NCBI GenBank assembly: GCA_000004985.1
Contig: GG738861.1
DNA from: Naegleria gruberi
Lineage: Eukaryota
Length of the DNA: 64,000 nucleotides
Direction: 5' to 3' (one strand)
Position numbers and translations under genes: made by a program. The notes below the pieces were generated by a model, which did no database searches, was not told the origin of the DNA, and saw nothing but the letters and a program-made list of their open reading frames with translations. The first letter of the stretch is position 1; each line of letters begins with the position of its first letter. Below are positions 2,141 to 48,748 of the stretch, piece after piece.

Positions 2141-4277
2141 CTATTTAAAATTCTTCCAAAATCTGTCTCCATAAGAGAAGAGTAATTCTGAATGAATATC
2201 AATATCTTTCAATGCATAAATCCCAATCCTGTAATCATGTGAATTGGTGTCATACACAATTTTGGGGATGCAATTATTGGTTTTTGAAGTTCTAACCTTT
2301 CCTTGTGCATCATTGAGGAATCTTGATTCATTTCCTTTTCTAAACGCGTCCACACTCATATTTTCATTCAGTTCGAACAAATAACTCGATTCATACATGT
2401 CATAGATTACTGATCTTCTATTCTCTTCCAATATGGATACAATCTCACCAACATACTCCACTATCAGCTCGTCCTTTTTAATAGGCTCCAGAGAGAATAA
2501 ACCTAAACCATGCAGCTGACTGAATCCTACTGCACACCGTTTCATAAAGTGTTTAGAAAAACTATTCTGGCAACTATTCTTACAGTCACAATATCCAAAA
2601 CACGATCTCTGATACTTTTTACATGTACACTTAGCCCCTGCACAGTTGTGATTTTTGAATCTATTCTTTTCTGTAAAGCAATTACACAACTCTGTACAAA
2701 AGGTTCCATTCTTTACACAATTACATTCTGAAACGTTCATTATTGCACACTGACACGGGTTATAGAGCATTGGTTTGTGAAGATTGGGAAAGATAACCTT
2801 CTCAGGGTTGATTTTCTTAACAATTTGAGTTTCTAACATATCCAACTCTTCGGGCGTTAAGAATGATTTTGCCACACCTCTCATAATGGCCAACTCTTCT
2901 ACCTTGTTCTTGGGTGGAGATTTCCTTCTTGCCATTCTAATTTTGAAATTAAAGAACCAATCACAGATGAATTTCTTAATTTCTCTGCATGGACGAATGT
3001 GATGTTCTGCCATCTGACAAAAGACATCTCTATTGGAACACTTTGAATTGTTCATATTTTCCAAAAATCGTTCTCCATAGATAAAAACAGTATTAAGGGC
3101 AATTTCCTTATCATATTTCGTCCAATGGTCGTATGAATCTGATATTGATTCATCCTCAACACAATGCAGATAGCACTCTGATGAGCATGGTTTAAGAGAG
3201 TATTTTTTGTTGACAAGCAATGAGTTTTGAGTTTTGAATAGCTTTTCTAAAATAGAGCCAATAGATAATTCATTATTATATTCAGGGGTGGCTCTAGCAT
3301 CTTCTGGATCTCTAATGCATGTATCATACTCCACTCTGTGAATAGCACAATCAAATTTCATGCACTTGTAACAAAATAGCTTGGCTGTAATACTCCATAT
3401 CGATTCTAGTGATCCATTCCTATAAAATTCCCACAATAAATAATAATAATAATATGATGGATAAACTCTCAATAATTCACGTGTTAACCTACTTTGATTG
3501 AGATTTTTGCTCATTTTCCCTCTTGAAAATTGAATAGCTCGATAATTGTTCCTGGAACAGTTCCATAATTTTCAGTCTAAACTTTTTCCTATCATATTGT
3601 AAGTGTTCCTCTGCCATGACAAATAGTTCTTGATTCTCATTTTCATACTCCCTCATAAAATCCTCAGCCAGTAATTTTAACACTTCATCATTTTCACCAT
3701 ATTTTTCACTAATTCTTTCTACCATTGTTCGGTAAATAGTTTCGGCCCACAAATCCAAATAATATTTCATAAACTTGGAATATCCACTCTTTTTTGCAGA
3801 ATTATTTCCATTTTCTATAAAACTCAAATCATCAAAGTATTTCGAATATGATTGATAATCCACACAAAAATCATCATCCTTATATGGAATAAAGTCAACT
3901 GAAGCCTGTTCCTTTGCCATCTTATTCTTACACAAATATTCATAGTAGGTGTATTGTAATTGAAACATGCTATCAGGATACTCAGTTACTGATTTGTTTC
4001 TTCCTCTAGTTTTTGTTTTTAAAGTGATGGAAACTTGTTCCATTCCCTCTTTCTGTTCTTTCAATTGTTGAGAGTGCATATTTAGACTCTTTTGGAAAAT
4101 GGCCAAGTCTTTCATTCTGTGTTCCGTTTTGAATACATCGATATCCTCCTCTACTTGTTCCGAATCAATTTTGTGATGAGTTCTCTCTCGTTTACCTGAT
4201 GACGATGATATCTGGTTGTGGTGATGATTTTCCTGATGATGCATGCCGTCATAGTGATGGTGTGGAAGTAGATGCAT
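2141..4277 (-). CDS. EZH/E(z)-like CXC + SET domain protein (PRC2 catalytic-subunit-like). Exons 4277..3493 and 3419..2141, about 687 aa
   Basis: C-terminal half has a Cys-rich CXC run (CQCAIMNVSECNCVKNGTFCTELCNCF...CAGAKCTCKKYQRSCFGYCDCKNSC) followed by a SET core (GLGLFSLEPIKKDELIVEYVGEI...GNESRFLN...HDYRIGIYALKDIDIHSELLFSYGDRFW), colinear with animal EZH2 as I recall it. Overlapping ORFs 3489..4277 and 2141..3514 join via GTAGGT donor at 3492 and TATAG acceptor at 3421-3420 (73-nt intron, phase 2). His-rich N-terminus. Start codon choice is uncertain. Confidence 0.55.
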
Positions 4278-21874: not shown

Positions 21875-22246
21875 AATAATTTATAATCTGGTGGAAAGTT
21901 ACACTTGGAGCTTAATGCTCTCATTTTTGAAAATGGCAGTCATTTCATTTTCTTTTGAATCAACAATGGATGCAAGTTTAAAGAATAAATGGATTGAACA
22001 AGCAATAAACTCAATACTGTAAAACCTTGTACGTAAGAAACAAGCGAGGGTAAATAAGTTATAAACGAACCAAATTACCAACCATACGCAGATAACTGAT
22101 TCACAAAGGCACTCAAATATTGATTTAATTTCATATAAGTTAGAGTGGAAACACCAAATTGAACTGGAATTTCACTTTCAATACCCATAAAATATCATCT
22201 TGAAATCAGCCTCTACTTCATTTTTATAAACTGTAATAACATCATC

Positions 22247-22441
22247 TCATAACTGTTCCCACCATTTGCTGTTGGAGCTATAATTGTCTAAGTAGAAAAG
22301 TTCAAAAACGGTTGAAGCAATCTCTTCATATTTTTCCCATCTGCCTGTATGAGCATTGATTTGAAAATTAATCATCTTTTGGTTCTCAGTAAAGTTCACT
22401 AAAAAACCATCAACATGTTGCTCATTTGGAAAGCACATCAT
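22247..22441 (-). CDS. Small hypothetical CDS. Probably the 3' exon of an unresolved short gene at about 22247..22664
   Basis: The reading frame stays open upstream of Met 22441 (…YSIVVFKKHYFISVNFDKNTKSKAIDGIMMCFPNEQHVDGF…) to a stop near 22549. A GTATGA donor near 22581 with a TATTAG acceptor near 22545 would join it in phase to the 22473..22664 frame, but that frame has no ATG, so the model is unresolved. Fold could be SNARE-like or longin-like. No secure homology. Confidence 0.2.
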   Translation of the reverse strand: MMCFPNEQHVDGFLVNFTENQKMINFQINAHTGRWEKYEEIASTVFELFYLDNYSSNSKWWEQL

Positions 22442-23496
22442 TATTCCATCAATAGCTTTGGATTTTGTGTTCTTATCGAAGTTTACTGAGATAAAGTAGT
22501 GTTTCTTGAAAACAACAATTGAATAAACTAATAATAGAAAGTATGCTCAAAAAAATTGTCATACTATGGTCCCACCCTTGCCCACCCTCTATTATTATTA
22601 GTTTATTCAAATCAAAGGTTCTAACCTTTGTCCTTAATACTTTGGAATGTGATTTTTTAACCAATCCTCAAATATTTTCTCAATTGATTGAAAGATTTCA
22701 CTTTATTTGTATTATTGAAAGATGATTGTTATCATCTTTTTATCTTTGTATTATTATTTGATATTTGACATCATTTATTGATGTTTTTTATCATGATTGG
22801 TGATCTAAAACCAATTGTTGGTGATCTAAAACCGACAGATCAACTTTATGTTGATTAGAAGGTATCTGATACCTTTCCCTTACTATTAGTAAGGCAATAT
22901 GTACTGAACATACCTCTTTTCTCATTCTCGTTTTGATTCGTAAGTGTCAAGACGGTTGAGTAGGTTTTTTAATTCTTAACTTTTTGGTTTTTACCGATTT
23001 TTTTTTTTTTCCTACAAGAGTAGGTTTTTTTATATGGGAGTTGTTTCTCCAAAAAACAACTTGGTTTATTGTCAGATTGCTTTAATTTAGTTTAGTTTTT
23101 GCTTTTTGTTAAGAAATCATAGTATGATTGTATTGATTAGTTTATTTAATTTCTGGACCTGCTGAATAAAGCTTAATGCCTAAAAACAGCAGTAACCAGG
23201 CTACAAACTACCTAAGAATAGGTAGAAGTTGTAGTGTGAGCTTTATATCCATTAGTTTATTTATTGTTGGTTTTTTTTTAAGAAACATAAATAATGTTCC
23301 CAATAAAGTTTGCTAGGAGATGAGTATTGTGTTTTTAGACACATCCAAGCAGTAAAGTTTGTACCTACAGTATAAGTGTTTCAATAGTAAACACACAAAA
23401 TAAAGTTCAAATAATATTTAGACAATTGAATATTAAAACTCAGAAACCACCTTAATAATGAAACAACCTGGAATCTGCTTTGAAGGATATAAATCT

Positions 23497-25245
23497 TTAT
23501 TGAGCAGGATCCATTTTGAGATGAAGATGATATAGTATATTGTTTCCTTTGTGGAGTTCTTTTTTTGTTGAATAATAAGTAAGGTTGTTAATTAATGTTG
23601 CTTCTTGAGCAAGAATGTTCATCAGGGATCGCTGATTGCTACTTGGGTTAAGTAGTTTTGATAGAATGGAATATGATGAAGAAACGAAACTGTTTGCTTC
23701 ATCAATAGCAATAATAAAAGCTTGTGTTTCTTTAGTTTCTTTAAGCCCAAAATAATAACGATTATCTTTTAACAAATCTCCTATTTGCATAATAAGGTAA
23801 CCAGTATAGTCTCTTAAAGATTTTGAGTTGCAGTATTCATACTTTAGTAATTCTTTAAAAACTAATACACTTGCCAACTTGTCATTTGCTTGCATGTATG
23901 CTAAGTAAGGATAAAGTCCACCAAAATCTTTAAAAACATCCCTATTATTTTTGGCATGTTGGATGACTTTTAAAACATAAATCAGTCTTGCAATAAATAC
24001 CATCTGCACTATTTGATGAACACTTGCATACAAATCAATAAGGGTCTTTGATATCAAAACAGAATATGCTTCTCTCATCAACTCGTCGGCTACTATTGTA
24101 TCAACAGGCTCGCTCTTTAATGTACAGCTTAAATATATACCTGATACTGTTGACATTAATCTATTAATTGTTCTTAAACATTATTAATAGCTTGTTAGTT
24201 AGAAAATAAAAAGTACTTACCTGGTCTTACCGATGCCTGATGATTCTATTTCAATTTTTTCAAGTAATTTTTGTGTTAAATTTAATGGTAATTCTATATT
24301 TTTCCAACCAGTCATTATTAATCTTGCTCTTTCATAAAATTCTTCAACACACTCATACACCATTTTCCTTGTTAAATCTTTTTCTGAAAAATTGTTAATT
24401 TCATTCAATAGTTTCTTTGATAATTCAAATACGATAGAGTCACCCAATAACATCCCATGAGGAATGGTAATAATGAATCTCTCTAAATAATCAGTTATCT
24501 TTTTGTTACATTCCATGTTGGCACCAACAATGCTGCCTTTTTCAATCTTTAAATTATCAATTTCAAACTTGGTCAAACCAACACCGCCTTCATTAACAGG
24601 TTTACTAAGTTGCTCTCTAATTTTTTCAACTTCCCACAAATGATAGAGTCTTGTTTTGTATAAATCATCAACCCAATTTACAACAATATCCAATGTATCC
24701 AACAAGTCAACTGTTAAAGTATGGCCCGAGTTTTGGTATTTTGATTTGAGTTTTTGATAGGCATAATCTGTTCCCTTTTGTAAACCAACAACAATACAGG
24801 CAAGAGATTTACCATTAAAACTAGCCTTATATAATAGCTCGACATTACGAACGGTCAAACCGGCTCCTCCATTCTTCTGGTCAGTGCAAAGTAAGGCGCA
24901 TACTTCTTCTTTAGACCATAAATCATATTCCATTGGGTTTAATTTTGCGTAGGGTGATTCGGAAGTAGTAGGTATGGAATTTTGTTTTTGGTTAGAAATG
25001 TTATTATTACCCGTTGGAGTAGTGGAATAGTTTTTGGTGGAGTTATTGAATTGTGCTGCAAAATTGTTCTTAACTAAATAATAACAACTATTACAATTGT
25101 TCTTGTTATTAACTACAGATCTCCTAGAGTGAATATTCAAGTTTCCGATGGAGTTGTTAAATTGTTGAGTTTGAATGGTAGTTGGTTTTAAGGTAATTCG
25201 TTTTGATATTTTGTTAAACCATTTATTTTTCGTGAGCGATTTCAT
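23497..25245 (-). CDS. Hypothetical protein, two exons (25245..24221 and 24172..23497), about 566 aa
   Basis: ORFs 24217..25245 and 23497..24156 join via GTAAGT donor at 24220, branch-like CTAACTAAC, and TTTAAG acceptor ending 24173 (48-nt phase-2 intron). An alternative AATAG acceptor 12 nt downstream is also in frame. Low-complexity N-rich N-terminus. No domain I recognise. Confidence 0.45.
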
Positions 25246-25654
25246 GATGTATTTTTTGTATTTTTTTTAATATGTTGTTTCTTCTCATACATTTAATAGA
25301 GCAAAATTAGAAAATTTGAAATTCTGGCTTCAGCTACATCAACAGAAAGCTGGGTTCTAAACTTGGATAAAAAATTACATGTTATTTGCACACTTAAAGA
25401 GCTAGACTTTATTAATTAGGAATTAAGAAACCTTCCAAGATTTATTGTAGAGTTTATGGAATTTTGACAACATAATTCTGGGGTTTTACTACAAGATTTG
25501 AATTATGTGACTATTTCTTACGAGTGTTTTGAGTCAAACGTACAAGTTGTTACAATAGTTTACCTTTAAATTTAGAACCTATTCATTCTATTTATTGAAG
25601 TAAAGGCAAATGAGCCATCAAATAATAGAATTCTTTTAAAACAAATTTAAAAAA

Positions 25655-26764
25655 ATGAAAAACAAACCTCAACAACAAAGAGGGCTCGGATTGGATGCAT
25701 ATAATTCCGATAATGAAGAAGGTGAATCCTCTTCATCATCTAATGCACCTTCGGAGGATTATAAATCAAAGAAAAAAGGAGTTGCCAATAAGAGGAGTCA
25801 AGAGGAAATTAAAAACAAAATTGTTACATTAACTAAAAAACGAAAACAAGACGTTGGAAGTAGCGAACAAAATTGTACAATTTCAAAAATTGATGATAGT
25901 TTCGATTCCTTCAAAACCTATATTTATTTACCTTGTAAATTTTTGGATGATTCCACGTCATTAATTGAGATGTTACTGAGGGATGTTCTTTATAGAGATC
26001 CGTATAATTTATTATTATTTTCACCTTGTACTACAGATCCGTTCTTTGTTGGACATCATGTGAGTCTTTCAAAGACATTTAATGTTAAAAAGAATTTAGC
26101 TTCTGAATTTAGACTCTCTTTGGGAGAGGTAATGCGAGTAAATACACGCCTTCCAATCAAGATTGCATTTAAAAGTATAAGCATGTATTTGGGATCCAAT
26201 GTAGCAGCAAAATCAGATATTACACCGACATATGCTATTTATTTAGCATTTGACTTGACAGATGAATACGAAGAAAGAATTGTATCTTCTCTTTCAAAAG
26301 CATTCTGTACCAAAGGTGATTATTTCGATAATGGAATGCATGCCTTAATTGACGAGGAAAGCTTATGGTTTTCCAAACTTCACGTATCGTTCGCATGTAG
26401 ATTATTCAAAGATAGGGAATCACAGGTTGAATATTACAAGGAATGCCTCACAAATATCAGCAAAATTGACTACCAGGATAATAGTGACTATCCAACATCT
26501 TTCAAAATTTGTTCCATTAACACAGCTGTACAACACATGGTTGGATCTGATCTTTCACAATCTAAAGAAAATAGAATAAGTGTCACAGATGCACGAAAGA
26601 AAATACTCTCCACAACACAAGTCGAAACAATTGAGATTGTAATGGGTTCCAAAACATTCAGCGTCGACATTCCTCATTTGGAAGAGCCTCAAATGATCAA
26701 AGAAACTTGGCAAATAACTTTGAGTATTAATAGGTCGGAAAGTGATTCAGATTCGGATGGTTAA
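25655..26764 (+). CDS. USB1: USB1/Mpn1-like 2H phosphoesterase (U6 snRNA phosphodiesterase-like), 369 aa
   Basis: Two H-x-S motifs about 110 aa apart (VGHHVSLSKTF and SKLHVSFACRLF), the signature of 2H phosphoesterases and of Usb1 in particular. Acidic Ser-rich N-terminus with a basic patch (KKRKQ). Confidence 0.5.
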   Translation: MKNKPQQQRGLGLDAYNSDNEEGESSSSSNAPSEDYKSKKKGVANKRSQEEIKNKIVTLTKKRKQDVGSSEQNCTISKIDDSFDSFKTYIYLPCKFLDDSTSLIEMLLRDVLYRDPYNLLLFSPCTTDPFFVGHHVSLSKTFNVKKNLASEFRLSLGEVMRVNTRLPIKIAFKSISMYLGSNVAAKSDITPTYAIYLAFDLTDEYEERIVSSLSKAFCTKGDYFDNGMHALIDEESLWFSKLHVSFACRLFKDRESQVEYYKECLTNISKIDYQDNSDYPTSFKICSINTAVQHMVGSDLSQSKENRISVTDARKKILSTTQVETIEIVMGSKTFSVDIPHLEEPQMIKETWQITLSINRSESDSDSDG

Positions 26765-41249: not shown

Positions 41250-43040
41250 TTAGAGATTTGCGAGTTGACCATTAAGGAAGGAATTGAACAACAAGATAGC
41301 AACCTCTGGTTGATAAGTTGGTACCATGTGACCTGTTTTTGTAAATTTTGAGTTACTATTAAATAATCATAATTAAACATACCAGCATTCTTAACTGTGG
41401 CAAAGAACATGTTTCTACTTGGATTATAACCCTTAATATAACCAACAACTTGCTTGTTAATGAAATATGGATGGTATGGAATGGTGAGAGGGAAGCCAAA
41501 TTTTTGGACAGCTCTTTCAGTGGATGGATATGGGCAACATGAATCAACCTAATATTTCAAATGAAAACAATAACATTATTTCAATAATAAAGTTAAAACT
41601 TACGTCACCAGAATAAATAAGAGTATAGAAATTAGGATCATATTGATAAATTTCTTGATAGATTGGAATCATTGAGTTGACCATATCGTTATATTGAAGA
41701 ACAGTTGAACAAACATCCCAGAACTTGGTGTTTTCAGATGCTGAAATACCATGAACAGCAAGTTGGACATCTCTTCTATTGAAATAATTGGAAATACCAG
41801 TAACATTCATGCATGGAATGTAGGTTTGAGAATCAGAGACTCTTCTTACAACCTTCTTACCAGCTTGCAAGGCAAGTTGATGAGTGAAACAAGCACCTCC
41901 AACAGATGGCTTTCCAATACAGTCAGCATAAATATTGTATGGGTTAATTGGTCCAATATTATTTCTAATGTCATTAATAATATTTTGACATTGAGCAGAA
42001 GGAGTATTAAAGTTTGGACATTGTTTTTGATAGAGATCAAATTCTTCACTTCCAACCAAAGCATGATGGAACATGAATGGGAAATAGGCATTAGCATCCA
42101 AATCATTATCCATTGTTGGATTACCAACACTCAATCCTTTGAATGAAATCTTCTTTTGACTGTTAGTATTGTACTTTAAAATTTCTCTGGCGAGCAATGG
42201 AACATAATTACCACCTGAAAATAGTCAATTTAGATCGACAAATATTTTGTTGAAACATACCATAGCTTTCACCACTGACAAAGAATGGATTTGATGAAAA
42301 TTCAGGGAATAATTCAGTAAAGAATCCAATCAAAAATCTCAAATTATCAGTTGCAGTTTCATTGTCACCTGATGGATAGTTGGTACTATTGACAGGATTA
42401 GCAGTACTAAAACCGACCTATTATATTATTATTAAAATTGCATTTTCAACAAAGCATCATTCCACACATTGAATTATTTGCATTTCAAGTTGTCCAATAT
42501 TCCAATAAATAAAATTAACATTTAACTATACATACACCATACGGTTGTTCCAAATAAATAATATTAGCTTGTTGATTCCATGAATGTGGATTCTCAATAA
42601 TTGAATTTCCTGATGGTGTAAAGAGGAATGGACCATTTTCTGTCATTAAAGCCAAAAGTCCTGAACAACCTGGACCTCCCGTTAACCACAACACAACTAT
42701 TCCAAAAGTAAATATTATATAATACAACATCATCATCATGATCCAGAGCATCATCATCAACAATGACCATTCCCAACTAACTATATTATAAACAAAACAT
42801 ACCTGGATCTTTAGCAGGATTTCTCTTTGAAGTAACAAACCAGTAAAACAACTTTTTGGCTGGTTGTTGTCCGGTTGGAATATCGACAAAGCCTGTATAT
42901 TGCTTACTTGTCATTCGACCATTGCAGAGTGGGAGATAGGTGAGTTCATATTTTGAGGAGGCACTCTCTACGTGACCACTCAAACTCCGAATCATCAAAA
43001 TGAAGAAAACGGAAGCAAGAAGAGAAAGCAATAATTTCAT
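41250..43040 (-). CDS. Secreted serine carboxypeptidase (S10 family). Six exons: 43040..42803, 42696..42536, 42417..42261, 42214..41604, 41548..41383, 41332..41250, about 471 aa
   Basis: Signal peptide [20 protein letters not shown]|[18 protein letters not shown]|VGFS. Catalytic serine block FFVSGESYG|GNYVP. LIYSGD|VDSCC. Catalytic histidine block KNAG|HMVP. Five introns (106, 118, 46, 55, 50 nt), all GTATGT or GTAAGT to AG. Phases and length total close exactly (1416 nt). Confidence 0.8.
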
Positions 43041-43150: not shown

Positions 43151-46100
43151 ATGATTTTCAATCATGAAAAAGCCAAAATTCTATTAAAATTTCTCCATTT
43201 ACCTCTCACATTCTCTCCAAAGCCTCCAGCTACTCTTTCTCAAACTCTACAATGGACTTTGGAAAGATACTACAATTTACCACTCTATGGAAAGAAGATC
43301 AACATTGCTAACAATACTAATAATACTCTCAATTCAAAGAGTGAACATACAATTTCCGAGCACTCTTCCAAAGCAAATGATGATCATCAATTAAATAATA
43401 ATAATATTATTTATAATGAATTTAATAATTATGAATGGAAAAGTTATGAGGAAATTTATTGTCAGGCTCAAGAATTTCAAATTTATTTGGAGGAGAATTG
43501 TAGTGTGGAGGTTGGTGATTTGGTGTTGATTTGTTGTCCAACGAGTGAAGAGTGGGTGATTGCAGATTTGGCATGTGCAATGGCTGGTCTTGTCTCAATT
43601 CCAGTGGATCCTATGCTTGGTGTTTTGAAAATCAAACAGATTTGTGAGTTGACCAAACCAAAGGCTATTTTGTGTTTGGACTCAACCTTGTTTGATGGTG
43701 TAAAGTTGGATTGCTCTGTAAACATTGTGAAAATTGGACCATTACAGAAGAGAAGTAATTTTGATTCGAAACTGATTGCAAATCTGTCTGAAAAGGAAGA
43801 CGAAACCTATTTATTTACATTGCAACCAACTAGTGGATCAACTGGCAATGTTAAACTCACAAAAAGGACTCGCTCTAATTGGCTTAAAAGAGAAGGAAAT
43901 AGAGAAACCATTCTTCTTATCAATTCCTTATCCAGTCCTTCTTCACGTTCTTGGTTGTGGACTAATCTAATGCAAGGTGGTAAGGTGGCAGAATCTTCAT
44001 TGGAAACTTTAATATCAGACAGTCAAATTGTTCACCCAACCCAGGTTTCTTCCACTCCCATAGTTTGGGATCACATTTCCTCAGTGGTACGAAAGGGAAC
44101 AATCAAACCAACAGCATCCCTGGATGGAACAATATCGTGGATGAATACTCTTTTTGGTCCAAAATGTAGAGCTGTTACAAATACAGGTGCAGGATTGAGT
44201 CAATCAACAAGAGAATTGATGACATCGTTGTTTGGATCTGCTTTTGGAGATGGATATGGTAGTAGTGAAACAGGTGGAATTGCAATTAATGGTAAACTAT
44301 TACCAGGAGTTCAAATTAAATTAGTAGATGTACCAGAAATGGGCTATTACTCAACCGATATTCCATATCCAAGAGGAGAGCTCTATGTGAAAACTAGTAC
44401 CATGTTTGATGGTTATTTAAATGATGAGAAAACCTATCAAGGAAAATATCAAGAATGGTTTCCAACAGGTGACATTATTCAATTATTATCACCTGATGAA
44501 ATTCAAGTTATCGATAGAAAGAGTTTTACAATGAAACTGAAGAATGGAAAATTTGTTTCATCAACTTCAATAGAAAATTCTCTAAAGAGCTCAAAGTTGT
44601 TACAAGTAATTGTAATTGTGGAACAATATTCTGGAAAAGTAATTTCAGTTGTAGTGCCTAATTGGGACTTGTTCAAAGTCTTTTTGAAAGAAAAAGGAGT
44701 GGAAGGCTTGAGCAAAAGTGAAATGTGCTCCTCTGAAAAATGTAGAAACGAAGTATTGAAAGAGTTGAAAAGAATTCAATTATCAGAAGGATGTAATCCA
44801 GATGAAATTCTAAGAGGTGTTTTAATTAAGGAGAATTTATTTAGTGTAGAGGATGGTTCTCTCAATCCTTCTTTAAAGATTTCCAAGTTAGAGCTTGTTT
44901 CTAAATTTTCAAAGGAATTTCAGGAACTGAACAGTAATAATGTTGCAGAGAATGAAAATGATTCAATAGAGAAATATTTGAAAATTTTGAAAGATATTTT
45001 TGGCCACGAAGTGTCAATGGGCAACCATTGGACAGAACTGGGTACAAATAGTATTACTGTTACGATGATTGCCAACAAGTTAAATTCAACATTTGATAGC
45101 CAAATATCATCAAGCCAAATTTACAGATCTATCACAGTGGAAAATCTAGCATTTGAATTATTTAACAATACAAATGCAACTCATCATATAGAAGAGAGAA
45201 CACTATTATTACAGGATATTCAATCTGTTCTTCCACAAACAGATGGAACCAATAGAGCAGTTCCACCGGCTCCACCTCAAACAGTCTTTATGACTGGTTC
45301 GAGTGGCTTTCTTGGAGCCTATATACTGGATAATTTGACAAAACTTGGTGTTAAGGTTATATGTCTAATTCGCTCCAGTCCTGAAAAGTTTTATTCAAGA
45401 ATGGAATATTATGGAATTTCACCCAACAAGAATCTAATTGAACTTGTTAAAGGAGACATTTCAAAACCTCTTTTTGGATTATCAGTCATTGAATTTAATA
45501 ATATAAGAGAAAAGACCCACTCTATTATTCATAGCGCATCTAATGTAAATTGGCTTCTTCCTTACTCTGCTCTTCGTCATACGAATACACTTCCTGTGAA
45601 AACAATAATGCTTCTATCAAATTCAAATATTCCAATCCATTACATTTCTAGCATTGCTTGTGCAGAGCCTGGATCGTGTGAAACTCTTATACCAGACATT
45701 CCACATGACCCTGCATCTATGGGTTACGGTACTTCAAAATGGGCCTCTGAATACCTTCTATCACGCTATTCTAAACAAGACCAAGGTTCGGTTGTTATTT
45801 ACAGACCTGGTCATCTAGTTCCAACATCTGTCGATCAGGTGGTTGGACTGAATGAGAATGACTTTGTTTCTGTACTGATTTCTGGGTGTATTAAAGCAAA
45901 AGCATTTCCACCATATAGTGGAGCTGTGGAATGGACAAGTGTTGGAACAACTGCTAGTTTAATAGTACAATCTGTTATGAAACAAAAAGGTCCACTACCA
46001 TCAGAATTTAATATTTTCTCTCCATTGTCTACCAATTATGAAGATTTATATCAAGCTATATTATTGGAGGGATATGAGCTTAAAAAGTGTAATAAGGATG

Positions 46101-46318
46101 AATGGAACAATATTCTAAAACAGAAAGATAATCCTCTTAACAGTGTTTCTTTTCTACTCGTTGATGGATTGAAAGGAACTAATTTATCAAAACGATTTAC
46201 TTCATCTAATATCAAATATCTAGAAAGAGACCTTTCATGGCCAGCAATTTCAATCCAGAATATTAGAAATTGGATTAGTCACTTGCAAAGAATCAAGCTT
46301 ATTCCTCCACCAAAATGA
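43151..46318 (+). CDS. NRPS-like adenylation-thiolation-thioester reductase (A-T-R) enzyme, carboxylic-acid or aminoadipate reductase-like, single exon, 1055 aa
   Basis: Adenylation core motifs in order: LACAMAGLVSIPVDP, LQPTSGSTGNVK (A3), YGSSETG (A5), GELYVKTSTMFDGYL (A6), WFPTGD (A7), NPSLKISKLEL (A10 Lys). Carrier-like segment WTELGTNSITVTMIANKL. C-terminal Rossmann reductase with VFMTGSSGFLGAYIL, ICLIRS and catalytic YGTSKWASE (Y-x3-K). Confidence 0.8.
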   Translation: MIFNHEKAKILLKFLHLPLTFSPKPPATLSQTLQWTLERYYNLPLYGKKINIANNTNNTLNSKSEHTISEHSSKANDDHQLNNNNIIYNEFNNYEWKSYEEIYCQAQEFQIYLEENCSVEVGDLVLICCPTSEEWVIADLACAMAGLVSIPVDPMLGVLKIKQICELTKPKAILCLDSTLFDGVKLDCSVNIVKIGPLQKRSNFDSKLIANLSEKEDETYLFTLQPTSGSTGNVKLTKRTRSNWLKREGNRETILLINSLSSPSSRSWLWTNLMQGGKVAESSLETLISDSQIVHPTQVSSTPIVWDHISSVVRKGTIKPTASLDGTISWMNTLFGPKCRAVTNTGAGLSQSTRELMTSLFGSAFGDGYGSSETGGIAINGKLLPGVQIKLVDVPEMGYYSTDIPYPRGELYVKTSTMFDGYLNDEKTYQGKYQEWFPTGDIIQLLSPDEIQVIDRKSFTMKLKNGKFVSSTSIENSLKSSKLLQVIVIVEQYSGKVISVVVPNWDLFKVFLKEKGVEGLSKSEMCSSEKCRNEVLKELKRIQLSEGCNPDEILRGVLIKENLFSVEDGSLNPSLKISKLELVSKFSKEFQELNSNNVAENENDSIEKYLKILKDIFGHEVSMGNHWTELGTNSITVTMIANKLNSTFDSQISSSQIYRSITVENLAFELFNNTNATHHIEERTLLLQDIQSVLPQTDGTNRAVPPAPPQTVFMTGSSGFLGAYILDNLTKLGVKVICLIRSSPEKFYSRMEYYGISPNKNLIELVKGDISKPLFGLSVIEFNNIREKTHSIIHSASNVNWLLPYSALRHTNTLPVKTIMLLSNSNIPIHYISSIACAEPGSCETLIPDIPHDPASMGYGTSKWASEYLLSRYSKQDQGSVVIYRPGHLVPTSVDQVVGLNENDFVSVLISGCIKAKAFPPYSGAVEWTSVGTTASLIVQSVMKQKGPLPSEFNIFSPLSTNYEDLYQAILLEGYELKKCNKDEWNNILKQKDNPLNSVSFLLVDGLKGTNLSKRFTSSNIKYLERDLSWPAISIQNIRNWISHLQRIKLIPPPK

Positions 46319-46703
46319 ATTCATCTTTTCGTACAGGTCTCAATATTTCTTCCTCTAAATAATATCCATCCAAAGAAATCAAATCATCAAAAACATTAGT
46401 TTCAGCAACAATAACTCCCTTCCCTTCAGGTAGAAATTCAATATATTCCAACCAATTAATGAAACCATAACCATAAATTCTGCAAGGTTCCATATGATAA
46501 TTACTTGGCCCACTATAATTTTCAATTTGATCACAACATGTGACAATGTCAATATCATTCAACCTATTTTTCCATTCAATATATGGTGTAGGTTGCTTTG
46601 CAACTCCAAATTCTAGTCTTTGAGAATCGATATACTTCTCCATCTCTAAACTTGTTGGTGGTTTCTGATATTTCAATAGTTCTGATCTGATTCTACAATC
46701 CAT
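46299..46703 (-). CDS. Hypothetical small protein, 134 aa
   Basis: ORF with ATG. Its 3' end overlaps the last 20 nt of the convergent A-T-R gene. No motif I recognise (…EPCRIYGYGFINWLEYIEFLPEGKGVIVAE…). Confidence 0.35.
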   Translation of the reverse strand: MDCRIRSELLKYQKPPTSLEMEKYIDSQRLEFGVAKQPTPYIEWKNRLNDIDIVTCCDQIENYSGPSNYHMEPCRIYGYGFINWLEYIEFLPEGKGVIVAETNVFDDLISLDGYYLEEEILRPVRKDEFILVEE

Positions 46704-47158: not shown

Positions 47159-48748
47159 ATGAAGAGAAAAATTGAAAAAAATCAAGCCATGAAGAGAAAA
47201 CAACAAAAGAAAGCCAAGGCTGTTCCAAAAAGAACAGCAGAAGAAGAAAAAGCCTATCAAGAATATTTGCAAAATTTAAATCTGATGGACCACTTGAATG
47301 CAGAGTATAGTAGTGAGGAAGGTGTTCAAAAGGCTAAAAAGACCTTTGGAGAAAACAAGCCATTCCCATACTTGCATTTGAAGAACTTTTTCAAGGATTT
47401 GGAATTTGTAAAGGATGTCAAGCAAGAAACTCTTGCACTTAAATATTGGGAAAAGAACAATGATTTGTATCACTTTTTACAAACTAAAGATCTTCAAAAG
47501 AATGCCATTGTTGAAGAGAATGAACATTTACGTAAATTGAGAGATGTTTTATATAGTCCAAGTTTTAGAGGATGGTTGGAAGAAGTTTGCAGTCTTAAGG
47601 AACGTGGAATTAAATTGAATCCATCCATTGATATGTTTGTTTCATGTTATCGTGATACACATCACTTGTTGTGTCATGATGACGAATTGGAAAAACGTAG
47701 AATTGCTTATATTATTTATCTAGTTCCAGAAGATTGGTCCGAAGCTGATGGTGGACATCTTGATTTGTATAATTGTGATCCAAAACAAATGGATCAACCA
47801 GTTAGTATTGGTGGTTCAGTTCTTCCATCATTTAACAGTATTTCCTTCTTTGAAGTTTCTACAATTTCCTATCACAGAGTTCGTGAAGTTTTACGTGCTA
47901 TTGATATGGAGGAAGATCGTATTGCTATTACTGGTTGGCTGTATAGTGATACTCTTGTTGAAAGACCTGATTATACTATTGAAGATATTGCTCCACTTAC
48001 ATATGAAGAAGTTTCAACTGTTGAAACACCTGCTGCTCATTTGGATGTTGCATATTGGTTAGGTGAATCATATGTTAAGGAAGATATCAGAAAGGCTGTT
48101 AATGAACAATTTTGTAATGAATCATCTATTGAATTGAGATCATTCTTGAGCGCTCAAAAATTCGATACTTTATACGAAGAATTCAAATCATTGAAGGAAG
48201 ACCAATTCGATTTTACAATTCCAGCCAATAGAAGACACTTTTTGAGATTGAATTCTGAAAAATTGGAAAAGAGCTCTGAATTGAGCAAGTTTTATGAATT
48301 TGCCAAATCTCAAGTTTTCGTTGATTATTTGAAGGAAATTACCTCACTTCCAATTAAGAAGATTAATCTTCAAGGAAGAAGATTCAGACCTGGTGATTAT
48401 GCTCTTGTTCAAAATACTCCAGTTGACGAAGTTCGTTTGGATGTCTTGTTTAGATTGTGTCCAAAGGATTGGGACTTTGATTTTGGTGCAGGTGTAACGT
48501 ATATGGATGAAGAAGAAGAACTCTTGTCCATCCTTCCAGAACCTAATACCATCTCGATTGTTTTGAGAGATACTGGTGTTCAAACATTTGTCAAGTATGT
48601 GACACATCATGCTCCAGGTGATGTTTATGACTTTTTACTCACTTGTGAAACTGAAATTCCAGAAGGAAGTGAAGGTGACTGGGATGATGATGAAGAGGGT
48701 GAAGAAGGCGAAGAAGAAGGTGCTGAAGAAGCAGAAGAAGAGGAATAA
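47159..48748 (+). CDS. OGFOD1: OGFOD1/Tpa1/Ofd1-type 2-oxoglutarate-Fe(II) prolyl hydroxylase, single exon, 529 aa
   Basis: Double-stranded beta-helix iron-site region CYRDTHHLLCHDDELEKRRIAYIIYL (H-x-D...RR.A.I.YL), as in OGFOD1/Tpa1. Second degenerate DSBH domain downstream. Acidic Glu/Asp tail. Basic KR-rich N-terminus. Confidence 0.7.
   Translation: MKRKIEKNQAMKRKQQKKAKAVPKRTAEEEKAYQEYLQNLNLMDHLNAEYSSEEGVQKAKKTFGENKPFPYLHLKNFFKDLEFVKDVKQETLALKYWEKNNDLYHFLQTKDLQKNAIVEENEHLRKLRDVLYSPSFRGWLEEVCSLKERGIKLNPSIDMFVSCYRDTHHLLCHDDELEKRRIAYIIYLVPEDWSEADGGHLDLYNCDPKQMDQPVSIGGSVLPSFNSISFFEVSTISYHRVREVLRAIDMEEDRIAITGWLYSDTLVERPDYTIEDIAPLTYEEVSTVETPAAHLDVAYWLGESYVKEDIRKAVNEQFCNESSIELRSFLSAQKFDTLYEEFKSLKEDQFDFTIPANRRHFLRLNSEKLEKSSELSKFYEFAKSQVFVDYLKEITSLPIKKINLQGRRFRPGDYALVQNTPVDEVRLDVLFRLCPKDWDFDFGAGVTYMDEEEELLSILPEPNTISIVLRDTGVQTFVKYVTHHAPGDVYDFLLTCETEIPEGSEGDWDDDEEGEEGEEEGAEEAEEEE

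Follow-up and report, generated by a model that had tools for sequence, protein, structure and literature searches.

Which enzyme is encoded by an intron-less gene with adenylation, carrier and reductase domains in the genome of a free-living amoeboflagellate, and where does such a gene come from? This question is raised by positions 43151..46318 (plus strand) of a 64,000-nucleotide stretch of Naegleria gruberi DNA (contig GG738861.1, assembly GCA_000004985.1), which is referred to in full as the window in the following. A first-pass annotation had recognized here a nonribosomal peptide synthetase (NRPS)-like enzyme of the adenylation-thiolation-reductase (A-T-R) type and suggested that it may have been acquired horizontally. 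The reading frame described at that time is intact, since the list of open reading frames (ORFs) contains a single uninterrupted ATG-to-stop frame of 1055 amino acids (aa), with an in-frame TAA immediately 5' of the ATG. The gene thus represents a complete, intron-less coding sequence. Its product matches the "predicted protein" NAEGRDRAFT_66188 of N. gruberi (XP_002678527.1, EFC45783.1, UniProt D2VBE7) at 100% identity and is therefore already annotated, yet uncharacterised; the literature searched contained no mention of the locus tag or the accession numbers and nothing on carboxylic acid reductases (CARs) of Naegleria or other protists. As set out below, NAEGRDRAFT_66188 is probably a native, stand-alone CAR-like carboxylate reductase which, together with a few eukaryotic relatives, forms a small clade inside the FadD9/CAR branch of the A-T-R enzymes. 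Judging from its sequence, it is most likely an active ATP- and NADPH-dependent enzyme with an altered active site.

The proposed domain order was recovered within one polypeptide, as in CARs, both by Pfam and by a Foldseek search with an AlphaFold2 model (mean predicted local distance difference test score, pLDDT, 76.7). Pfam assigned AMP-binding to aa 88-423 (E 3.8e-34), PP-binding to aa 613-667 (E 7.8e-5; 23.3 bits, with a cut-off of 20.8) and NAD_binding_4 to aa 715-925 (E 3e-31). The adenylation (ANL) domain, covering aa ~92-595 (43424..44935, plus strand like all features of this gene), is of the type found in CARs and long-chain acyl-CoA synthetases (ACSLs); its best sequence and fold matches in the PDB are A domains and A-PCP (adenylation-peptidyl carrier protein) didomains of CARs, and its catalytic A10 residue Lys576 (44876..44878) is invariant in all full-length relatives. 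The carrier (T/PCP) domain follows at aa ~603-672 (44957..45166) with the motif LGTNSI (aa 630-635), whose phosphopantetheine serine, Ser634 (codon 45050-45052), is likewise invariant across the full-length relatives. In the model, aa 605-672 form a four-helix bundle; Ser634 begins helix 2 and thereby occupies the position canonical for phosphopantetheine attachment. Thus, the marginal Pfam score of the carrier domain is backed by an invariant serine and by the predicted fold. The replacement of Asp by Asn in this motif is specific to N. gruberi (LGTNS; the closest relatives read LG(L/I)DS and CARs LGGDS), while His, Asn, Ser, Gly, Thr and Lys also occur at this position elsewhere in the family.

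The C-terminal thioester reductase domain, of the short-chain dehydrogenase/reductase (SDR) type, extends over aa ~711-1050 (45281..46300). It contains the nucleotide-binding motif TGSSGFLG (aa 715-722), Arg741 and the motif YGTSK (aa 859-863, continuing as WASE), so that all motif strings named by the annotation are present. The GxxGxxG motif expected of a CAR reductase domain is accompanied by the catalytic residues Tyr859 and Lys863, which correspond to Y844 and K848 of the Neurospora crassa enzyme NcCAR and are invariant in the alignments. In the Foldseek search, the A-PCP didomains of CARs ranked on top (5mss, 5msw; E ~1e-35), and the terminal reductase domain of MxaA was the fold match for the reductase (R) domain. 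Both thioester-reductase models recognized this region, PF07993 with 108.9 bits (cut-off 20.1) and TIGR01746 with 180.7 bits, spanning model positions 1-370 of 371 but remaining below the curated cut-off of 213.35.

The assignment to the CAR or NRPS-like kind of enzyme, which the annotation had left as a choice between several families, could be narrowed. The best NCBIfam model is the carboxylic acid reductase NF041592, with 244.4 bits at a curated equivalog cut-off of 1300, and in a sequence comparison with the PDB, CARs from Segniliparus rugosus, Nocardia iowensis and Mycobacterium marinum ranked first (E 7e-46 to 2e-43). The nearest relatives devoid of a reductase domain are eukaryotic ACSLs. 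The amino-acid adenylation model TIGR01733 attained only 57.7 bits and thus failed its cut-off of 317. In addition, the A4 position is followed by Pro263, at a site that is occupied by an Asp in Lys2 and in NRPS modules, including those of polyketide synthase (PKS)-NRPS hybrids. This Asp is the residue of amino-acid A domains that binds the alpha-amino group. Its replacement and the low TIGR01733 score point to a non-amino carboxylic acid as the substrate class. NAEGRDRAFT_66188 is accordingly regarded as a CAR/FadD9-type A-T-R enzyme predicted to act on a carboxylic rather than an alpha-amino acid, and as neither Lys2 nor an amino-acid NRPS module.

Both in sequence and in fold, the closest matches are the type I, FadD9-type CARs (EC 1.2.1.30) of N. 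iowensis, S. rugosus, M. marinum and M. abscessus (PDB 5msc, 5msp, 5mso, 6oz1). These enzymes have in common with NAEGRDRAFT_66188 the A-T-R order, an ACSL-like A domain with the A10 lysine, a phosphopantetheine serine of the DS/NS type and an SDR reductase with TGxxGxxG and the Tyr/Lys pair. Nevertheless, the identity amounts to only 23-26%, and the N. gruberi protein lacks ~30 additional residues that actinobacterial CARs possess upstream of A3. Further differences concern the end of A3 (PKL instead of PKG), the essential His and Glu of the A domain, which are changed to Ser262-Pro263 and Lys467, and the R domain, where "RPG" stands in place of the actinobacterial "R-x-D". The Asp of the latter motif is replaced by Gly887; it was found in just 21 of 196 sequences, all of them actinobacterial CARs. 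This residue (D998 in SrCAR) has reportedly been implicated in stopping the reduction at the aldehyde. Over-reduction has been described as possible for CAR R domains (PMC10168641). The fungal CARs of types II-IV, e.g., NcCAR (PDB 8aep), and Lys2 follow the same A-T-R logic, and the Ser, Tyr and Lys located at the same places are essential in NcCAR (PMC5826065), but these proteins are much more distant (E 6e-12 for the R domain of NcCAR and 1e-11 to 1e-16 for Lys2 proteins, compared to ~1e-48 for CARs). Fatty acyl-AMP ligases have been reported from two Naegleria species (PMC12820801).

An exhaustive phmmer search against 1.84 billion representative sequences, in which many relatives are proteins from metagenomes or SRA assemblies, revealed a closest group of ~8-10 sequences (461-781 bits), followed by the next matches only from 290 bits downwards. 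This group, hereafter the Naegleria clade, was monophyletic with 99-100% bootstrap support in neighbour-joining (NJ) trees, which were calculated from simple corrected distances and bootstrapped on whole-protein, A-domain and T+R columns; N. gruberi and its closest relative, P0003, formed a pair with 100% support. The next-best named matches originate from Amoebozoa (Balamuthia, Protostelium, Rhizamoeba, Heterostelium and several Pelomyxa paralogues), Thecamonas, the chytrids Rhizophlyctis and Irineochytrium, and Symbiodinium. The view that such an enzyme is unusual for a protist is therefore not supported. Scored with group-specific hidden Markov models, the Naegleria clade showed the highest affinity to the amoebozoan-type group (480-593 bits), followed by a second eukaryotic group termed "LQ" (402-514 bits) and by actinobacterial CARs (272-382 bits), whereas Lys2/NRPS proteins scored lowest of the groups tested (97-163 bits). 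In the best NJ trees, the LQ group is the sister of the Naegleria clade, albeit with a support of only 15-30%, and the sister group is thus weakly placed.

The amoebozoan and other protist A-T-R proteins (Balamuthia KAL6055781.1, Protostelium, Rhizamoeba, Heterostelium PPL_02983, Thecamonas XP_013758931.1) share the architecture and the eukaryotic origin, many of them with long N-terminal extensions, but they retain the canonical Gly/His/Glu residues, unlike the Naegleria clade. The LQ group (Pelomyxa KAH3756747.1, Symbiodinium CAE7561362.1, Rhizophlyctis KAJ3040666.1, Irineochytrium KAJ3192990.1) resembles the Naegleria clade in its A3 "PKL" and in the lack of the CAR His and Glu. It differs by a shorter A4 loop and by featuring Gln and Val/Ile/Leu where the Naegleria clade has Ser-Pro and Lys. 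The LQ proteins represent a eukaryote-only, uncharacterised A-T-R group in their own right, including P0098, P0115, P0116, P0130, P0142, P0147, P0164, P0166, P0167, P0176, P0186, and P0189, some of which have been automatically named "carboxylic acid reductase".

The most distinctive trait of the N. gruberi enzyme is its remodelled adenylation site. Alanine replacement of either the His of the PxxH motif (H237) or the Glu of the L-S-x-G-E motif (E433) abolishes the activity of NcCAR (PMC5826065), and the role of the CAR His is known from a further study (PMC11606446). The former position is equivalent to H300 of NiCAR, H315 of SruCAR and H301 of MabCAR3, the latter to E533 of SruCAR. In NAEGRDRAFT_66188, Ser262-Pro263 (43934..43939) aligns with the essential His, with Ser262 being present in all six full-length members of the clade, while Lys467 (44549..44551, within "KLKNGKFV") is found at the position of the essential Glu and is also clade-invariant. 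The A3 P-loop TSGSTGNVKL (aa 227-236, 43829..43858) ends with Lys-Leu instead of Lys-Gly, a Leu that is restricted to the Naegleria clade, the LQ group and the short fragment P0151. Moreover, alignment to 6oz1 and comparison between the groups disclosed a clade-invariant pocket motif, T343-N344-T345-G-A (44177..44191), at positions which read x-x-G-(S/G)-A in most relatives; its Thr-Asn-Thr corresponds to G393-S394-G395 of MabCAR3. Together with Ser300 and Lys467, Thr-Asn-Thr forms a set of clade-invariant polar residues. Most of the family, i.e., ACSLs, bacterial CARs and most amoebozoan-type proteins, retains the Gly/His/Glu signature. Because Ser262-Pro263 and Lys467 stand in for His and Glu and the pocket carries Thr-Asn-Thr, either the acid that is used or the positioning of its carboxylate probably differs from that in actinobacterial CARs.

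The remaining catalytic equipment is preserved. The P-loop core, Glu373, Asp441, Arg456, Lys576, Ser634, GxxGxxG, Arg741, Tyr859 and Lys863 are invariant, also inside a clade whose members share only ~40% identity, which indicates purifying selection on the ATP and acyl-adenylate chemistry. This pattern of conservation speaks for a functional enzyme whose site has been altered, and not for decay. Furthermore, the presence of the CAR His is correlated with that of the Glu throughout the family: among the 179 of 196 aligned sequences that cover both positions, 106 possess both residues, 39 neither and 34 only one of the two (Fisher odds ratio 14.8, p = 2e-13, uncorrected for phylogeny). Such a distribution fits a functional pair that was swapped as a unit more than once and suggests that alternative working solutions exist.

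From domain architecture, conserved residues and predicted fold, we infer activity, substrate class and product as follows. A phosphopantetheinyl transferase (PPTase) acting in trans and encoded outside of the window would prime Ser634 with phosphopantetheine. The A domain would then convert a free carboxylic acid without an alpha-amino group to the acyl-adenylate at the expense of ATP, and the acyl group would be transferred to the phosphopantetheine thiol as a thioester. The carrier domain would subsequently present this thioester to the SDR domain at the C-terminus, in which an NADPH-dependent reductive release could yield the aldehyde and perhaps, in a further step, the alcohol. Since ACSLs are closest among the relatives without a reductase domain, a fatty acid or another aliphatic acid is the default guess for the substrate; the clade-invariant polar residues would also be compatible with an acid of smaller size or higher polarity. 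A substrate call from the pocket residues mapped via 6oz1 was attempted and abandoned, the positions being too variable across the family.

Several observations weigh against an active, CAR-like reductase. Neither the best-scoring CAR model nor the thioester-reductase model TIGR01746 reaches its curated cut-off, the carrier motif is atypical with a marginal domain score, and the variability of the pocket extends so far that the substrate cannot be called. Both A-domain residues that are essential in NcCAR are replaced, and adenylation may accordingly work differently, poorly or on an unexpected compound. There is a tentative extension of the CAR-like reading, for which we see some chance at best: the Naegleria clade could represent a fifth type of carboxylate reductase with a mechanism of its own, in which Ser-Pro/Lys replaces His/Glu and positions, together with Thr-Asn-Thr, another class of acids, e.g., small polar, hydroxylated or dicarboxylic instead of aromatic or fatty ones. 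If this holds true, amoeboflagellates with a free-living lifestyle, along with several further protists, would possess an aldehyde-forming step outside of the known pathways.

In the opposite direction, the loss of His and Glu might have left an A domain that is impaired or repurposed, with the carrier and reductase domains being loaded in trans from acyl-CoA or by another ligase, or with the protein fulfilling a non-enzymatic role. The inactivity of both NcCAR alanine variants would be in line with this scenario, as would the simultaneous change of the His and Glu positions and of the A3 Gly to Leu. One homologue of the clade, on the contig L013 (2314-4052), is devoid of the equivalent of aa ~398-747, comprising the A domain's C-terminal half, the entire carrier domain and the first part of the R domain, and is probably a decayed copy, showing that decay is possible in this family. 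Nevertheless, the invariance of the P-loop, Glu373, Asp441, Arg456 and Lys576 speaks against impairment, and the substituted residues (Ser-Pro, Lys, TNTGA) do not vary within the clade either, so that the site looks remodelled rather than decaying. NRPS A domains function without the His/Glu pair as well, and the co-variation of both residues suggests working alternatives. An impaired A domain is hence considered improbable.

The second part of the opening question concerns the origin of the gene. A recent horizontal acquisition from bacteria, as an NRPS-like enzyme of secondary metabolism, was the proposal of the annotation, and at first sight it may appeal as the best-characterised homologues are actinobacterial CARs, the distribution among eukaryotes is patchy, all clade members seen are intron-less, and a single sequence from a Planctomycetes metagenome-assembled genome occurs amid the eukaryote-rich next relatives. 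The absence of any named Naegleria or other heterolobosean from the clade is suggestive only, given that the presence of other Naegleria proteomes in the databases is unverified. Still, the composition of the gene offers no sign of transfer. The GC content is flat over the gene region, GC at third codon positions (GC3) amounts to 0.25 compared to a mean of 0.29 (standard deviation 0.03) for 23 window ORFs, and relative synonymous codon usage (RSCU) correlates with that of the other window genes at 0.92 (mean 0.88). A foreign composition could accordingly be rejected, and the comparison of codon usage and GC3 with flanking genes, which had been recommended for verification, did not support a transfer. 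The gene is indeed intron-less as described, but 22 other window ORFs of at least 250 aa are uninterrupted too. Since uninterrupted frames are the local norm, the lack of introns is uninformative with regard to transfer.

The relatives provide a similar picture. P0003 is encoded on a eukaryotic contig (L001, GC 32%) next to split Ras genes, an RNase PH and a Kelch gene, and the L013 contig (SRR22388312, GC 44%), which harbours actin, ZPR1 and RagA, is also eukaryotic; the same holds for L008 (GC 50%), the DNA of which is 90% identical to L002 and on which the neighbours are an F-box gene and a Tag1_C/DUF3712 gene. Signature peptides of the clade were absent from the GTDB genomes representing 185,579 species of bacteria and archaea and from IMG/VR, a weak negative as it relied on two short patterns each. 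Actinobacterial CARs, which score far below the eukaryotic groups, fell within the sister group in just 10-14% of the NJ bootstrap replicates. Finally, the window does not feature the context of a gene cluster, with no PPTase, PKS, NRPS, tailoring enzyme or biosynthetic cluster being detected among its 23 large ORFs. Acquisition as a bacterial secondary-metabolism enzyme is therefore highly improbable, and a recent bacterial import into Naegleria is unlikely. In view of the patchy distribution, the wider family may have an ancient transfer at its root, or may have spread from eukaryote to eukaryote.

The alternative of an alpha-aminoadipate reductase (Lys2) of the fungal-type lysine pathway with a mis-annotated N-terminus, which could invoke the common A-T-R core and a partial match of the Lys2 model TIGR03443 over the T-R region, is effectively refuted and retains a negligible probability, because that match reaches merely 116.5 bits at a cut-off of 1030, the N-terminal condensation-like domain of Lys2 is missing (no PF00668 match by Pfam in the 1055 aa, in agreement with the absent N-terminal extension pointed out before), the in-frame stop lies immediately upstream of the ATG, Pro263 substitutes for the Lys2 Asp, the profile affinity to Lys2/NRPS proteins is the lowest, and Lys2 proteins fall far behind CARs in E value.

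Besides, some peculiarities of the protein and its relatives were observed. An Asn-rich, low-complexity insert (aa 54-91, 43310..43423) is unique to N. gruberi, absent from all aligned relatives and predicted to be disordered (pLDDT <50). An intron at this place was considered, but no plausible GT..AG pair excises the insert while retaining the conserved YEW motif, and the insert was consequently treated as coding. Close to the N-terminus, KILLKFLHL (43175-43201, aa 9-17) matches the loose consensus of a type 2 peroxisomal targeting signal (PTS2), [RK][LVI]x5[HQ][LA], which has a chance of ~0.5% given the composition of the protein. The enzyme might thus be located in peroxisomes; the stricter PTS2 consensus is not matched, and the peptide is not conserved among the relatives. 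P0003 carries a frameshift at the R-domain sequence "YRPGHLV" (L001, ~3860-3880), reflecting either an assembly error or a pseudogene, and 300 bp downstream a separate fragment of ~50 aa resembles R-domain residues 808-860 (L001, 4700-4849). P0007 (L007, SRR8274964) comprises 1187 aa with a ZZ-type zinc finger ahead of the A-T-R core, a eukaryotic domain combination of which, to our knowledge, no description exists.

The two adjacent genes that had been noticed earlier were both found. On the minus strand, an S10 serine carboxypeptidase gene (41544..43040) is divergent from the reductase gene and separated from it by an AT-rich spacer of 110 bp; introns are implied by the distribution of its coding sequence over three or more frames, and the first exon is signal-peptide-like. 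A convergent ORF of 134 aa (46299..46703, minus strand) overlaps the coding 3' end of the reductase gene by 20 bp and has no Pfam match. Further downstream (47159-48748, plus strand) lies an Ofd1/Tpa1-type 2-oxoglutarate/Fe(II) oxygenase gene (2OG-FeII_Oxy_4 and Ofd1_CTDD) with a long acidic Glu/Asp tail. Together with this oxygenase, the other genes identified in the window, encoding IFT121/WDR35, an Asn-tRNA synthetase, a kinesin, a GCN5-type acetyltransferase with bromodomain, FtsH, a pentatricopeptide repeat (PPR) protein, a copper P-type ATPase and Kae1/TsaD, are ordinary housekeeping genes of a eukaryote, a setting that likewise speaks for a native gene. No gene neighbourhood is conserved among the relatives on L001, L002/L008, L005 and L013, where all neighbours differ. 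The GC content of the window decreases to ~0.30 at ~22000-26000, compared to ~0.34 elsewhere.

CARs are widely used as biocatalysts for the production of aldehydes and are classified at present into one bacterial and three fungal types. The Naegleria clade is an uncharacterised eukaryotic CAR-like group with a familiar architecture and a distinctive active site. It forms a small part of a broad, likewise uncharacterised set of protist A-T-R enzymes and lacks the His/Glu pair that was reported to be essential. If the clade is active, this pair is no universal requirement, and a new active-site template with a possibly new substrate range would become available. Both the active-site variant and the breadth of the protist A-T-R enzymes could therefore be of interest to enzymologists. 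For the N. gruberi genome, the example illustrates that the lack of introns and bacterial-looking best-characterised homologues are no evidence for horizontal transfer. Naegleria is reported to favour lipids as fuel. With regard to the biology of this organism, the enzyme flags an unexplained step that may form an aldehyde or an alcohol.

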